Positions 3,768-15,745 of a DNA stretch of 64,000 bases are shown in pieces (position 1 is the first letter of the stretch; the number at the start of each line of letters is the position of its first letter). The notes below the pieces were generated by a model. It ran no database searches. It was not told where the DNA came from and saw only the letters and a program-made list of their open reading frames with translations. The position numbers were made by a program, and so were the translations under genes. Source of the DNA: a virus; the IMG/VR virus record IMGVR_UViG_3300009104_000014, positions 7,020-71,019 of that record. One strand, given 5' to 3'.

Positions 3768-4120
3768 AAGACGAATTGTTAGAACACATTTGGTATTACG
3801 AAATGGCCGATGAGAGGATGGAACGAACCACAGAGATATGGGATGAGATGGCTGACGACTTCATGCGCTCGCATGGTTGGGATGGGCCACACTTGGCGTA
3901 TGATACTAACAGAGATACAGGCACACTATGGGTGCTAATTGGTAGCAACCAAGTTGGCCTTGACTTAGTAGAGATATGGGAAGACACCGGTATTCCTGAG
4001 AGAGAAGGGGATAGGTTGCTAACTTCAATGTATGATTACGCAGAAGAACTTGCTTACGAGAACTGGATTATTAGCGGAGATGCCTTAGAATGGGAAGGGT
4101 GGTCGCCTGACGAAGTATGA
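3764..4120 (+). CDS. acidic hypothetical protein
   Basis: 118-aa ORF, translationally coupled. Confidence 0.65.
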   Translation: MKDELLEHIWYYEMADERMERTTEIWDEMADDFMRSHGWDGPHLAYDTNRDTGTLWVLIGSNQVGLDLVEIWEDTGIPEREGDRLLTSMYDYAEELAYENWIISGDALEWEGWSPDEV

Positions 4121-4133
4121 GAAATACCAAGTC

Positions 4134-4451
4134 TTGCCAACAAAGGGATTACTACTGATAGCAAAGAACGGAAAGATACAGAAAATCCGAGGGAACGAAG
4201 TATCAGTTAGATATGAAAGTAGCAACGCTACCTATTCGGAAGAGGAATGGTTTTGTCTGTTAGACAAAATCGGCGTGTGGATAATAGCGAGAAGCATCGT
4301 ATCAGCACCTGTTCAAATAGCAAGTAGCGTCTTAGCAGACCCAAGTCTAACTTGTGCTAACGCAGTATGGGCGGCTATGGAAGATAGCCAACGAGAAAGG
4401 TATACCCGCCGAAGACCAAAGTTGTTTGAGATGGAGTGGTTGAATGAGTAA
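4134..4451 (+). CDS. hypothetical protein
   Basis: 105-aa ORF with TTG start; start uncertain. Confidence 0.5.
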   Translation: MPTKGLLLIAKNGKIQKIRGNEVSVRYESSNATYSEEEWFCLLDKIGVWIIARSIVSAPVQIASSVLADPSLTCANAVWAAMEDSQRERYTRRRPKLFEMEWLNE

Positions 4452-4650
4452 AGACGAGCCACCGTTGCTACATTTAGCAAATGTAAACGGTCCTATTTGC
4501 GGATTCAAATATGAATCCAAGTGGAATGAAGAGATGCAAGAATACGAATGCACTTTCCCAAAGAAATACCTTGACGATTCACTAACTAAATTACGACCAC
4601 GATGCCCTGATTGCTTACGGGTTTATAGGGAGCAGTATACCAAGGAATAA
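4444..4650 (+). CDS. small putative Zn-binding protein
   Basis: H..ICG...CPDC pattern in 68 aa. Confidence 0.55.
   Translation: MSKDEPPLLHLANVNGPICGFKYESKWNEEMQEYECTFPKKYLDDSLTKLRPRCPDCLRVYREQYTKE
4619..4630 (+). promoter_or_regulatory. archaeal TATA-box promoter (GGGTTTATAGGG class) driving the non-coding region
   Basis: Same motif lies 29-32 nt before ATGs at 6324, 11679, 15723 and 19111; here +30 falls on 4652, the start of a long stem. Confidence 0.7.
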
Positions 4651-4651
4651 T

Positions 4652-4781
4652 TGGTGGTAGTTAGAAAGAGTTGCTAATCTAACCGAGGGGTCGTATTTGT
4701 ATTACAGAAAAGGCCGATTGTTGGTGAAGCATTTGTTGTTATTGTTTGTCTTTCTTGTGTCCCTCTTTCTAATTACCACCA
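4652..4781 (+). ncRNA. putative structured ncRNA 1 (~130 nt)
   Basis: 19-bp closing stem 4652-4670/4763-4781 (one G-U pair), irregular internal hairpin, U-rich internal strand, no credible ORF, starts at predicted TSS. Confidence 0.6.
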
Positions 4782-4790
4782 CACACAAAA

Positions 4791-4986
4791 GGGGGAATAG
4801 CAACTAAAGACTGGCGCGGCTAACGAAAACAAGGTGTTAGCCCAAAACCTATACCATGTTCGGTCTAAATGTGGAAGTAATTAGCCACAGTATAGGGATG
4901 ACGGCATCCCGCGAATCGTATGAAAGAAGGATAAGCCAAGAAGGGTCGGAGAGAGATTAGACAATTGCGCCCGTTGCTATTCCCCC
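4791..4986 (+). ncRNA. putative structured ncRNA 2 (~196 nt, multi-stem)
   Basis: Perfect 14-bp closing stem 4791-4804/4973-4986 with nested helices 4813-17/4967-71, 4818-24/4836-42, 4863-68/4957-62, 4870-74/4885-89, 4895-4900/4905-10. Confidence 0.6.
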
Positions 4987-5001
4987 ACCTTACAATAAGA
5001 G

Positions 5002-5346
5002 ATGAGTAAAATGGCAAACAGAAGAAATAAACATCGTTTAACCAAGCGTGGAAGATGGGATAGAAGCAAGGCTTTGGAATGTGCCGCAAGGTATCTCGTT
5101 GAACAAGGCAGACCATTGTCTGCCGCCACCGTATATGATAACATGAGATTCAAAGATAGAAGGAAGAGAGATGGGGGCGGTATTGGCAATCTCTATAGAA
5201 ACAATAGAACCGCACAATCATACGGACAAATCGCGGCAAGGATGCTAAGATGCCCTGCCTTTAAGCAAATTGGCAAAAACCCAATCCTTTTCTCTTGTGA
5301 TGCAGAAGCCTATGAAAATTGGTGGCCGGTTGACCCACTACAATAA
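5002..5346 (+). CDS. basic winged-helix protein (DUF3860-like paralog)
   Basis: 'RYLVEQGRPLSAATVYDNM...SYGQIAARMLRCPAFKQIG' wHTH pattern. Confidence 0.55.
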   Translation: MSKMANRRNKHRLTKRGRWDRSKALECAARYLVEQGRPLSAATVYDNMRFKDRRKRDGGGIGNLYRNNRTAQSYGQIAARMLRCPAFKQIGKNPILFSCDAEAYENWWPVDPLQ

Positions 5347-5391
5347 ATGCTCAAGCAAACCGTGATATATCCGTAGATACCTACTCGGTAT

Positions 5392-6120
5392 ATGCGACAC
5401 CCGTTGCTATTCGGTGGGAACTTCCTACTTACAACACCGGATTTGATAGAAGTTGTAGATTTCAAAGCATGGAGAAAGGTAAACAACCCAAGAGAGAATA
5501 GAAAAAGACGCAGATTCTCACCGTATCTAACACTTAGATGTGGGGAAACCTTGCTAAAATTGGTTGGTTATAGTGCAGTATGGGAGTTCTTAGATGCAAT
5601 CCAGCCTGATTTACCAAGAATACCAATCAATTCGGTTATGAAAGGATATGAGTTCTATGATATAGAAACCATGTCTTTCTTGGAAGAGGTTGCTTGGTTC
5701 TTGGTAGAGAGTGATGAAGCGTTTATTGGATTCAAGATAAACGATAATGGTTTAGCAAGAGCAGTCAAGAAACCACTTAGCAACATCCCGATAGCCAGCA
5801 AAGAATACACAGGAGCGTCAGAATTGACGCTTTTTGATGCCACAAGATATTATGTTGCTATCTTAGAAAGCAAATGCACCAGCAAATACTTTGTTTACAC
5901 CATAGGTTATGGTGTTAGACCCCTGAAAGGAAAGGTGTTTAGCAAGATAGATGAAGCGCAGATGTATGCTGTAAGAACCACCCATGAGATAGCAAGCACA
6001 GAGAATGTTATCGGCCACCAAATCCTGAGGTTCGGGATGTTTGATGAAGAGGTAGATTCATTGGAGAATGAGTTATTCTTTCAGTTATTGAACGAAACTG
6101 AAAACCAAATTACTACTTAG
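5392..6120 (+). CDS. hypothetical protein
   Basis: 242-aa ORF; TATA-like TGATATAT 29 nt upstream (leaderless). Confidence 0.7.
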   Translation: MRHPLLFGGNFLLTTPDLIEVVDFKAWRKVNNPRENRKRRRFSPYLTLRCGETLLKLVGYSAVWEFLDAIQPDLPRIPINSVMKGYEFYDIETMSFLEEVAWFLVESDEAFIGFKINDNGLARAVKKPLSNIPIASKEYTGASELTLFDATRYYVAILESKCTSKYFVYTIGYGVRPLKGKVFSKIDEAQMYAVRTTHEIASTENVIGHQILRFGMFDEEVDSLENELFFQLLNETENQITT

Positions 6121-6290
6121 CAGTAAAGCGGTTTGCTAATTCTTTCTATTCTCTATAGGACATTAAGGGAATATACTGTAGTATAACTCCCTGATATACC
6201 CCTTGAACAATAAAAAGAATAGAAAAAGTGTGATACTGCTCCGCAGTAATATGGTCTAAAATGAACAGAAACAATAGAAAGAATAAGTGG
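6072..6290. repeat. ~215-bp imperfect palindromic element, copy A (origin-like)
   Basis: ATTCTTT at 6075 and 6139, AAAGAAT at 6214 and 6278, CAGTA/TACTG pair, central TATACT-gt-AGTATA; homologous to 59695..59910. Confidence 0.75.
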
Positions 6291-9911: not shown

Positions 9912-10198
9912 TGAGTAGAGAGGCCGGTAAGAAAATTAAGTGGCGACCACATTTTAACCAATTGATTGCTCGCCCCATTCCTAAGTCAGAGTTCCCTAAG
10001 ATAGTGGAAAAGATGATAGAAGATGGTTTGGTCTGTGTCCTACATTTGGGGGGCTACCAATGGTATAGTGGTAGATACCGAGTGTCTGCGTCGGCCGTCA
10101 GAGAGATATGGTGTCTTTCTCAATCCCAATGGAGCAGGTTCATGGGATGGGTTTATAGCCATGACCCGTTCTCATCAATTGATGACGAAGACATATAG
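9908..10198 (+). CDS. hypothetical protein
   Basis: Trp-rich ORF with ATGA-coupled start. Confidence 0.6.
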   Translation: MMSREAGKKIKWRPHFNQLIARPIPKSEFPKIVEKMIEDGLVCVLHLGGYQWYSGRYRVSASAVREIWCLSQSQWSRFMGWVYSHDPFSSIDDEDI

Positions 10199-11253: not shown

Positions 11254-11655
11254 ATGAGTGCGAACAATAGACGGTTGCGTCGGCTCGTCGTGGATATACT
11301 GTTCACAGAAGGGCCATTAACGAGGACTCAAATAGCAGAAAAACTTGCTAATTTACGCTCGCTTAGAGAGGTCCCAAGCGACAACAGTCTTTCGAGTGTG
11401 CTTGCTAAAAATGTTCAGTTGGAATCAGTAGGCTTTGCTAAAGTAGAGAAACTAAATGGGAACAAAACAAAACACATGGTGTTTGATATTAAGCGTGATT
11501 TGATTAGCAACCATGAAGAGATAGAACAAACGAGGCCAATGTCTTGTATGACTGCTCAAGAGAGAACCTTAGCATCAAGGTGTCCTCAATGCGGAAGACA
11601 TAGAATACTTCCAAAGGATAAGAATGTCTGTCTTCATTGTGTTAAGGGTTTATAG
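11254..11655 (+). CDS. DUF3860-like winged-helix protein with C-terminal Zn finger
   Basis: 'LVVDILFTEGPLTRTQIAEKL...PSDNSLSSVLAKNVQLESVGFAKV' plus CPQC...CLHC. Confidence 0.65.
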   Translation: MSANNRRLRRLVVDILFTEGPLTRTQIAEKLANLRSLREVPSDNSLSSVLAKNVQLESVGFAKVEKLNGNKTKHMVFDIKRDLISNHEEIEQTRPMSCMTAQERTLASRCPQCGRHRILPKDKNVCLHCVKGL

Positions 11656-11657
11656 GG
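11646..11657 (+). promoter_or_regulatory. TATA-box promoter (leaderless)
   Basis: GGGTTTATAGGG, TTTATA 30 nt upstream of ATG 11679. Confidence 0.65.
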
Positions 11658-12293: not shown

Positions 12294-13247
12294 ATGTTGA
12301 AGACAGTATGGTCAGAAAAACACCGGCCTTCTTATCTTAGTGATATAGCAGGGCAAGATGCAGTTATAGTAGAACTGCAATCAGTAGTTGAAGGCCAAGT
12401 ATCGCCCCAACATTACATTTTCTATAGTCCACAAGCCGGAACAGGAAAGACCACAGTTGCGAGAGCATTTGCTAAAGAGTTAGGGTGGCCTATACATGAG
12501 TTCAATGCTTCCACAAAGAAAATGAGAGGCATTGAGTTCATTGAAGAAGAAATCATCCCTTTGTGTAATGTGGGAGCGAAGACAATCTATCTATTAGACG
12601 AAGCAGACCAATTAACAACCGCCGCACAATCGGCATTAAAGGGGGTAATAGAGAATGCAGATGGTATATTCATTTTAACCTGCAACGATATTAGCAAGTT
12701 ATCACCTTGGATACAATCGAGATGTTCGATAAAGAGGTTCCAACCCATCCCCATAGATTGGATGGTTGCGACATTAAAGAAGATAGCAACCGACGAAGGT
12801 CTACCTGCCGATGATAAGCATTCTTTGTGTATCAATAGGATTGCTAAAGCACATGAAGGAGATTTACGGAGTGCTATCAATGCACTACAGGCCATGTCTT
12901 GTCTTCATGTAGATGATAGGGATAGATTCACTTTAGCAATGGGCGACTCTCAATTAGATTACGAATTGTTTTTGAGAATGTGTTTTCGAGATAAGGATAT
13001 TGAGTCAGCAGTTAGGTTGCTAAATCCTTACGATACAAGAAAGGTTATCCGAGAGGTATTCTCATTTGCTATTTCTTCCAACGCTACTCCTGAATCCAAG
13101 ATGAAGGTTGTAGAAGCCGCCATCATTTGTGAGCGTGATTGTATTAACGGCGTTCAAGATGAGATAATTAAGTGGGCCTTCTGCACGATGCTTTGTAGGG
13201 GGTTTATAGGGAGATGGGATTTAGGACAGATTACAACAGATAGGTGA
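12294..13247 (+). CDS. rfcS: replication factor C (clamp loader) small subunit
   Basis: WSEKHRP, GTGKTT, EFNAS, LDEADQLT..AQSAL, 'IQSRC', GDLRSAINALQ. Confidence 0.92.
   Translation: MLKTVWSEKHRPSYLSDIAGQDAVIVELQSVVEGQVSPQHYIFYSPQAGTGKTTVARAFAKELGWPIHEFNASTKKMRGIEFIEEEIIPLCNVGAKTIYLLDEADQLTTAAQSALKGVIENADGIFILTCNDISKLSPWIQSRCSIKRFQPIPIDWMVATLKKIATDEGLPADDKHSLCINRIAKAHEGDLRSAINALQAMSCLHVDDRDRFTLAMGDSQLDYELFLRMCFRDKDIESAVRLLNPYDTRKVIREVFSFAISSNATPESKMKVVEAAIICERDCINGVQDEIIKWAFCTMLCRGFIGRWDLGQITTDR
13199..13212 (+). promoter_or_regulatory. TATA-box promoter with leader and AGGTGA RBS for the SSB/ATPase operon
   Basis: GGGGTTTATAGGG at 13199; AGGTGAG just upstream of ATG 13253. Confidence 0.6.
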
Positions 13248-15447: not shown

Positions 15448-15745
15448 TTATTTTGTTAAACGATGGATAATTACTGCCCTTTCTACAGTAGATACACCAG
15501 TCACCGCGAGAGCGGTTGTTGATATAATCAAACAACACCGCGACCCCAAAATAAATAGGAACTCTCGCCGTTCTGCTAACATATCAGCCGTAAAGATTGG
15601 GGCTATAATGTCGAGAATGGAAGAGGTAAAGGTGTTCCGAGCATCAAGCAACTCAGAAAGAAACCTGTATCAGATTAGACCGCAGTATAGGGGTTTATAT
15701 GGGGACAGGGAGAGAGGTATATATGAGCGGAAGAAAAAACAATGA
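15434..15745 (+). CDS. winged-helix protein (DUF3860-like paralog; start re-assigned to 15434)
   Basis: 'WIITALSTVDTPVTARAVVDII...ISAVKIGAIMSRMEEVKV...NLYQI'. Confidence 0.55.
   Translation: MARRNYFVKRWIITALSTVDTPVTARAVVDIIKQHRDPKINRNSRRSANISAVKIGAIMSRMEEVKVFRASSNSERNLYQIRPQYRGLYGDRERGIYERKKKQ

Follow-up and report, generated by a model that had tools for sequence, protein, structure and literature searches.

The stretch of DNA analysed here, in the following called the window, comprises 64,000 nucleotides and corresponds to bases 7020–71019 of a 71,019-bp IMG/VR virus record which has direct terminal repeats and is rated complete. The virus encodes a family-B DNA polymerase, a portal protein, a large terminase and a tail tube protein as well as an RFC-like AAA+ clamp loader, a dNMP kinase, a PD-(D/E)XK nuclease and a nuclease with ERCC4 and HhH domains. 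No tRNA or tmRNA genes were found, and no DNA similarity to GenBank phages was detected. Among these phages, the best-coverage matches of the DNA polymerase are haloarchaeal tailed viruses with ~23% identity, and the terminase matches distant bacterial phages only. The promoter type described below, with its TATA core at −30 to −25, together with the RFC-like gene, the ERCC4+HhH (XPF-like) gene and the polymerase matches suggests that the host of the virus is archaeal, and the record probably represents a marine tailed virus of archaea. Next to nothing is known of regulation at the RNA level among viruses whose hosts are uncultured marine archaea, and in those parts of the magrovirus and Poseidoniales-virus literature that our term searches covered, promoters, TATA boxes and non-coding RNA are not mentioned.

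Within the window, a gap of 351 nt separates ORF 4444–4650 from ORF 5002–5346. The start of this gap is occupied by a 130-nt element (positions 4652–4781, hereafter element 1) that begins 1 nt past the stop codon of ORF 4444–4650. Both ends of the element, TGGTGGTAGTTAGAAAGAG at 4652–4670 and CTCTTTCTAATTACCACCA at 4763–4781 on the + strand, are the arms of a 19-bp terminal stem. The inverted-repeat search (pair I19) reports them as 19 nt long, 95% complementary and 92 nt apart, and the fold yields an uninterrupted duplex free of bulges in which the sole non-Watson–Crick position is G4660·U4773 on the + strand. An earlier note made from the sequence had described this pairing with its single G–U pair and had placed an irregular hairpin and a U-rich strand in the interior. 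The pairing is confirmed, and both interior features are present in the window. The inner hairpin (4679–4724, + strand) folds into a lower helix, a middle helix GGUC/GGCC (4689–4692/4712–4715) and an apical stem–loop (4696–4708), and the U/G-rich tract extends from 4725 to 4762 on the same strand. After a spacer of 9 nt follows a second structured RNA on the + strand, element 2 (4791–4986), whose fold has a closing stem at 4791–4804/4973–4986 and a conserved core at 4813–4937. The SD-like sequence GAGATGA (4999–5005, + strand) then leads to a + strand gene whose small, basic product has a weak winged-helix match. The ORF of this gene is listed from 5002; since its relatives match residues 3–114, we place the start at ATG 5011 and refer to the gene as 5011–5346.

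The terminal stem is unusual for this genome. When the 64 kb were scanned for inverted repeats with at least 18 of 19 Watson–Crick pairs and a loop of at most 150 nt, 4652–4781 was the single site found, and 25 dinucleotide shuffles scanned in the same way gave none, the analytic expectation being ~0.002. The 71-kb genome contains no further copies of the element. On the + strand the 130 nt fold with −41.8 kcal/mol (z −4.44), a value that none of 200 shuffles reached, compared with −28.9 kcal/mol on the − strand. The − strand fold is itself better than that of its shuffles (z −3.37), which may leave room for a role at the DNA level or of an antisense transcript.

The earlier note had recognised no known RNA family, and this is borne out by Rfam. 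With release 15 at the gathering score there were no matches in the 64-kb window, and with a relaxed cutoff (E≤10) in the region 4400–5200 the only family matching the element was mir-556, at 19.5 and 17.4 bits, the threshold of this family being 84. This match, which appears on both strands and far below the threshold, was set aside as that of a generic hairpin. Six related loci gave no match at E≤1. For phi29 pRNA, SRP RNA or RNase P RNA, Rfam offers no support either.

The earlier note had itself named compensatory changes in homologues as a test of its proposal, and such changes were found in a diverged relative, here called lineage B, so that the covariation of element 1 consists of one pairwise comparison with the window. 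Lineage B was recovered through flanking-protein searches and DNA-pattern searches and comprises the loci L005 to L008, L024 and the partial L020, on four contigs having the same sequence over the stretch; aligned over 630 columns, it shares 81.6% identity with the window. Of the 19 pairs of the terminal stem, lineage B retains 17, and 12 of these are unchanged. Three positions have changed on both sides (15 A-U to G-C, 17 G-C to A-U and 18 A-U to G-C) and two on one side via G·U (9 G·U to G-C and 12 A-U to G·U). The pairing is disrupted at two of the 19 positions, namely at position 4 by an A·A mismatch and at position 11 by a 1-nt deletion that leaves a bulge. The 5′ arm is identical at 14 of 19 positions, with compensating changes in the partner arm, and the stem is present in lineage B's own minimum-energy fold. 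In a simulation with 5+5 random substitutions the probability of keeping at least 17 pairs was 0.008 and that of at least three double changes 0.007.

As to the strand, the preference of the earlier note for a + strand RNA was well founded, given the folding energies of element 1 (−41.8 vs −28.9 kcal/mol) and the G·U pairs. In lineage B the minimum energy is likewise lower on the + strand (−46.4 vs −42.1 kcal/mol), and the G·U pairs of the covarying helices stand on the + strand, whereas the opposite strand would have A·C mismatches. Judged by this sequence comparison, the 130-nt element is a genuine + strand RNA structure whose pairing is maintained by selection. A mobile inverted repeat such as a MITE was considered and rejected, as element 1 is single-copy, occupies the same syntenic site in lineage B and has flanks (AAT/CAC) without a duplication.

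The interior of the element is conserved very unevenly. Its 5′ part, which includes the inner hairpin, is the best-conserved part, with 48 of 54 positions identical to lineage B plus 12 gap columns. Here, too, helices are kept by substitution: the middle helix GGUC/GGCC reads GGCC/GGCC in lineage B (U·G to C-G), and the apical stem UUUGU/ACAGA has become UUUGCUU/GAGCAGA, with a U-A pair changed to C-G and an 8-nt insertion extending the stem from 5 to 7 bp. The tract 4725–4762, on the contrary, shows the lowest conservation of all segments. No more than 15 of its 38 positions agree with lineage B, without a single indel, and there its composition is mixed and the U-richness is lost.

An ORF overlaps this tract (4697–4807, TTG start) and could be a small protein gene with a hydrophobic product of 36 aa. 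The SD-like sequence GAGGGG is found 6 nt before its start, and in lineage B, too, no stop codon interrupts the frame within the variable tract. However, the 8-nt insertion in lineage B splits the TTG and the SD-like site from the rest of the frame, the residues past RKGRLLV.H are unrelated, and the end of the ORF overlaps the closing stem of element 2, which is conserved. The differences within the tract are spread over the codon positions as 9/11/11 and thus have no third-position bias, which indicates that the tract is non-coding. As neither the start nor the residues are conserved in lineage B, we disfavour this ORF as a gene and regard a coding function as extremely improbable.

Inverted repeats preserve complementarity in DNA as well as in RNA, and element 1 could also act at the DNA level as a cruciform, an operator or a replication-related inverted repeat. 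Such a function might be tied to the motif WTAGCAAC, as TAGCAAC is over-represented genome-wide (94 occurrences vs 7.9 expected). A copy of the motif on the − strand lies at the base of the stem (4670–4677; GTTGCTAA on the + strand, GTTGCTAT in lineage B), and an inverted TAGCAAC pair forms the closing stem of element 2. That the − strand fold also beats its shuffles would suit this explanation. On the other hand, pairing has been kept through G·U, that is, through what would be A·C mismatches on the other strand or in the second hairpin of a cruciform. The separation of the arms by 92 nt is unfavourable for cruciform extrusion as well as for a dimeric operator, WTAGCAAC is absent from the arms themselves, and its density at the locus is close to the mean for the left arm. 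A DNA-level element is for these reasons quite unlikely in our view.

Upstream of the stem and still inside the 3′ end of ORF 4444–4650 lies the sequence GGGTTTATAGGG (4619–4630, + strand), a predicted promoter that resembles a BRE/TATA box, with the core TTTATA at 4622–4627. From the end of this box to the start of the stem there are 21 nt. Exact copies of GGGTTTATAGGG are found at 4619, 11646 and 13200, and seven GGGTTTATA boxes are spread over the + strand from 4.6 to 19.1 kb. The boxes at 10149 and 11646 are followed at 21 nt by the in-frame ATG of an ORF, those at 15691 and 19079 at 20 nt; the box at 6289 has the ATG of an ORF 23 nt downstream, and downstream of the box at 13200 there is a leader of 41 nt that contains a GGTGA site. 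GGGTTTATAGGG and its 21-nt spacing to the stem recur unchanged in lineage B. In the relatives G001 and G002 the box is within the last codons of a zinc-ribbon ORF, and a leaderless kinase gene begins 21 nt later. The 12-mer box is not enriched, as with up to two mismatches it occurs 9 times compared with 5.65 expected and 9 matches were reached in 11 of 100 shuffles. Thus, the argument for a promoter is one of spacing and not of counts.

Archaeal TATA boxes canonically lie at −30 to −25, and the TTTATA core falls there if transcription starts at about 4652. The claim of the earlier note that the element begins 30 nt after a box checks out when it is referred to this core, and the spacing equals that of the ATG-aligned boxes. 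We infer from the spacing a predicted transcript start at about 4650–4653. The alternative that TATAGGGAG is a T7-like promoter was rejected, since among the 29 ORFs scanned there is no gene of the size of a single-subunit RNA polymerase with a Pfam match.

Where a transcript starting at this position would end is indicated by the downstream sequence. Intrinsic terminators consist of a GC-rich hairpin followed by a T-run in bacteria and of an oligo-T tract in archaea. Element 1 is not such a terminator, as its stem is directly followed by CACACACAAAAGGGGG and not by a T-run. In fact, there is no run of five or more T between 4600 and 5830, no terminator-like site on the + strand between 4300 and 5300 and no GGGTTTATA box between 4631 and 5011. 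As neither a T-run or terminator before 5831 nor a further box is present, the transcript most likely runs through to the ATG at 5011. When contigs of three metatranscriptome runs were compared with 4300–5400, none aligned; as these runs contain next to none of the sequence words of the locus, the result is neutral as regards expression.

These observations bear directly on the proposal of the earlier note that element 1 is a discrete RNA of 130 nt. As a stand-alone sRNA of about this size it would act in trans, either as a Y-RNA-like decoy of host Sm-like proteins or by pairing of the variable tract with targets. Several features would fit, namely the start aligned with a promoter box, the closed terminal stem as expected of a compact and stable RNA, the U/G-rich tract 4725–4762 of the window and the hypervariability of this tract without indels (15 of 38 positions identical), as might be seen in a target-matching segment. 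A discrete 130-nt RNA is nevertheless doubtful, because past 4781 there is no terminator or T-run and the next structured RNA is only 9 nt away. The tract has lost its U-richness in lineage B, and the best antisense match elsewhere in the window is 12 nt long and not significant (E 0.37). The idea that the U-rich strand sequesters Lsm proteins fails because this strand is the least conserved segment of the element and is not U-rich in lineage B. The analogy to Y RNAs and decoy RNAs fares no better: Rfam gives no match to Y_RNA or any other family, the stem of the window has no bulge, no LSM gene was found in the virus, and a search of the 71-kb record for a TROVE gene (PF05731) was negative while control genomes were positive. 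Overall we consider a stand-alone sRNA unlikely, and element 1 is probably not a free-standing decoy RNA.

A more elaborate version of the same idea starts from the constant length of the 38-nt tract, of which only 15 positions are identical between viruses having 96% identical terminases. The 19-bp clamp and the inner hairpin would then be the scaffold of a stand-alone sRNA that presents a fast-evolving, exchangeable cassette, a guide or decoy directed at RNA or proteins of the host. If true, uncultured marine archaea would have viruses equipped with a programmable RNA module; we think this very unlikely.

In contrast to its neighbour, element 1 has a narrow distribution. A covariance model of it (R2) matched two of 21 related virus records, which are also two of the seven that are at least 90% complete: the window's own record (G000) and G011, which belongs to lineage B and whose terminase is 96% identical. 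G001 and G002, with terminases 87–88% identical, lack the element, and a match in G013 (E 0.94, 11 bits) was set aside as noise. An exact-pattern search of IMG/VR for element 1 gave nothing beyond lineage B. BLAST of positions 4600–5000 against 10 related records returned only pieces of the promoter box or of element 2 and, in addition, a 23-nt match in G009 (E 0.016). As far as these sequence searches reach, element 1 is confined to two close virus lineages.

Element 2 was found in 11 distinct instances from six or more lineages. The model R1, built on its core from GGCG to GGATAAGCC, matched eight of the 21 related records and five of the seven near-complete ones, with two tandem copies in G002. 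In the window's record its only match is G000:C1:11832-11956, which is 4813–4937 of the window, and element 1 (4652–4781) is not matched by it. Searches of metagenomes and genomes used an element-2 pattern. Of 13 metagenome stretches recovered in this way, 6 are true relatives and 7 (L012, L013, L015, L016, L019, L022 and L023) chance matches; the sole match in genomes, L025, is likewise due to chance. The core of element 2, from GGCG...GGCUA to GGAUAAGCC, is nearly invariant, whereas the peripheral hairpins vary, with a UUCG-type loop in two lineages and a three-way junction in others. The closing stems are built from wholly different sequences (GGGGGAATAGCAAC/GTTGCTATTCCCCC, GGGGGTGTAGTGGG/CCCAC[A/G]CACCCCC and GTGAGGG/CCCTCAC), and the RNAalifold consensus has 18 pairs, six of them with double changes. 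No Rfam match was found for element 2 either. The neighbour at 4791–4986 is thus the more widespread and more informative RNA, and the element 2 family together with the genome-wide WTAGCAAC motif is a more promising lead than element 1.

The relatives that carry element 2 differ in what precedes it. Lineages C, D and E as well as G006 have, at the site of element 1, a long hairpin or two of them, whose sequence is unrelated to it. These analogous hairpins (L009, L011, L014 and L046, with a tandem pair in L014 and L046) are not homologous to element 1; short shared words had been noticed by eye, and MAFFT alignments do not support a homology. They have G-rich stems with C/U-rich partners, the stems being 13 bp long and the z values −3.5 to −4.8, and a compensatory change (A-U to G-C) distinguishes L009 and L011. 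Each is preceded by AGATTCACATAAG, lies 12–14 nt past a stop codon and has no TATA-like box within ~40 nt; by position these hairpins look like 3′-UTR or intercistronic hairpins and not like 5′ ends. L010 has no hairpin at all and carries a TTATAAA box 21 nt ahead of the closing stem of element 2 itself, and in G001 and G002, also without a hairpin, element 2 follows directly after the stop codon. As relatives have unrelated hairpins or none at this site, a long hairpin upstream of element 2 appears to be recurrent but replaceable and dispensable.

The hairpins of these other lineages raise the question whether element 1 belongs to the upstream mRNA (ORFs 4134–4650) and not to the downstream transcript. 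As an intercistronic hairpin it could be a double-stranded site cut by a host or viral endonuclease, as are the RNase III sites in T7 early RNA, or could protect the 3′ end of that mRNA against 3′ exonucleases. The position of its stem 1 nt past the stop codon would agree with this, as would the duplex length of 19 bp, which suits processing of the RNase III type (~20 bp), and the analogues of C, D, E and G006, which likewise follow a stop codon, have no TATA-like box and are sometimes in tandem. The exact promoter box at the spacing of gene starts, however, points to a 5′ end, and neither processing nor 3′ protection would need conserved inner loops. The splicing endonuclease of archaea recognises the bulge–helix–bulge motif, two bulges of 3 nt with a helix of 4 bp between them. 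This motif is missing from the stem of the window; in the stem of lineage B, 6 bp lie between a mismatch and a bulge of 1 nt each. We consider an intercistronic function to be improbable.

What the sequence does establish, within the limits of a comparison of two lineages, is that element 1 is a real RNA hairpin domain, which is under selection and apparently uncatalogued so far. As to its function, we give about an even chance to the reading that it is the 5′-terminal structural module of a non-coding leader of ~360 nt for the gene 5011–5346. Transcription would start from the archaeal-type BRE/TATA box at 4619–4630 such that the RNA begins right with the stem, and with read-through the leader would consist of element 1, the 9-nt spacer, element 2 and the SD-like site ahead of the gene. 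A duplex at the very 5′ end could then render a generic structural service and guard the transcript from 5′ exonucleolytic decay; alternatively, it might allow the conserved element 2 to fold undisturbed. We favour a generic structural role because relatives have at this position either no hairpin or long ones of unrelated sequence. The conserved inner loops of element 1 (48 of 54 positions identical) suggest in addition a sequence-specific role that goes beyond the leader model. If the leader reading is right, the locus provides a testable case of a 5′-terminal clamp hairpin and a concrete promoter model for these viruses, a BRE/TATA box at a fixed distance of 20–21 nt to leaderless starts. 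The ~360-nt leader with its two structured modules would be an exception to the rule of leaderless starts.

Several known RNAs resemble element 1 in part. In Y RNA and YrlA, the terminal stem contains a conserved bulged helix that binds Ro. As in element 1, the 5′ and 3′ ends pair as a long stem that encloses a large internal loop or module. Unlike these RNAs, element 1 has no Rfam match, no bulged Ro-binding helix, no 3′ end signal and no TROVE (Ro/Rsr) gene in the virus; the mismatch and the bulge of the stem occur in lineage B only and are not conserved. In the RNase III hairpins between the early genes of T7, cleavage takes place at an internal loop. These hairpins share with element 1 an intercistronic duplex of ~20 bp directly after a stop codon in an early or replication region. 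The stem of the window is perfect, however, and has a promoter box at its 5′ end, and the enzyme is possibly absent in the host. Finally, the stem–loop in the ompA 5′ UTR of E. coli is a 5′-terminal hairpin that stabilises the mRNA. Hairpins of this type are, like element 1, stable stems at or near the (predicted) 5′ end and upstream of a leadered gene. Element 1 is far larger, with its 19-bp stem, 92 enclosed nucleotides and an inner hairpin, and the host is presumably archaeal.

Candidate structured RNAs from intergenic regions of phages and viruses have also been catalogued from IMG/VR (PMC10690425). From the part of that report available to us, at least three unique regions were required there, and element 1, occurring in two lineages only, falls below this number. 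In kind it is nevertheless comparable to the orphan motifs of this catalogue as far as they are described in that part, being like them intergenic, virus-encoded, maintained as an RNA structure and absent from Rfam.

Element 2, the structured RNA that lies 9 nt downstream of the hairpin module of the putative leader RNA (element 1), is of modular build, as its core is nearly invariant and its peripheral hairpins are swappable. It lies at window positions 4791–4986 and, among related loci, in L043 (minus strand, 1383–1668), L046 (1440–1509) and L010 (9630–9727). There are at least two types of core: one in L046 and in copy 1 within L043, as opposed to the type of the window. In the related virus record G002 element 2 is duplicated in tandem, and the duplication also took in the final codons of the gene upstream. 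Immediately 5′ of each structured module in the relatives stands a short conserved word, AGATTCACATAAG or alternatively AAGATTACAAAT or AAGATTAGAAGT, often directly after a stop codon (L009 772–783; L014 2005 and 2107; L046 1198 and 1299); in L043 and L044 (minus strand) it directly precedes the element 2 core. This word could be a processing site or a scar of duplication.

The genes downstream of element 2 are mutually unrelated and include those for a 111-aa winged-helix-like protein and a 33-aa basic peptide as well as a 242-aa open reading frame. The gene at 5002–5346 is absent from the diverged lineage B (locus L006, about 3895–3990, compared with window 4987–5392), where element 2 is followed by ∼100 nt with another hairpin carrying an A9 loop and then by a homologue of the window open reading frame 5392–6120. 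The 20-letter pattern of element 2 also matched five metagenome contigs (L012, L013, L015, L019, and L023). These are similar to one another, repeat-like and without relation to the virus, and have the appearance of a dispersed repeat from a eukaryote in the samples. They were set aside as chance matches.

Element 2 is closed, in lineages A and B, by a stem made of two inverted copies of the motif TAGCAAC. This heptamer occurs 94 times in the whole window (43 copies on the plus and 51 on the minus strand) compared with 7.9 ± 3.1 expected, and none of 100 shuffles reached this count. The extended consensus is WTAGCAAC, with position −1 never C, and TTAGCAA (106 copies) outnumbers every other heptamer in the window. 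Copies of the motif are most closely packed over the first 24 kb, and three lie near element 1, at 4670–4676 (minus), 4798–4804 (plus), and 4973–4979 (minus).

A promoter-like box, GGGTTTATAGGG, is found repeatedly inside the last codons of small zinc-ribbon open reading frames (CxxC...CxxC), at 4619–4630 and 11646–11657 in the window and near position 1510 in L042 and L045 (minus strand). The ATG of the next gene follows 21 nt after the box; at 4652 the hairpin of element 1 stands there instead.

Within element 1, conserved or covarying helices flank a 38-nt tract (4725–4762) which shares only 15 of 38 positions with L006 (3604–3641), without any insertion or deletion, in two otherwise close viruses. 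The tract may be a hypervariable cassette of fixed length, or its sequence may merely be relaxed.
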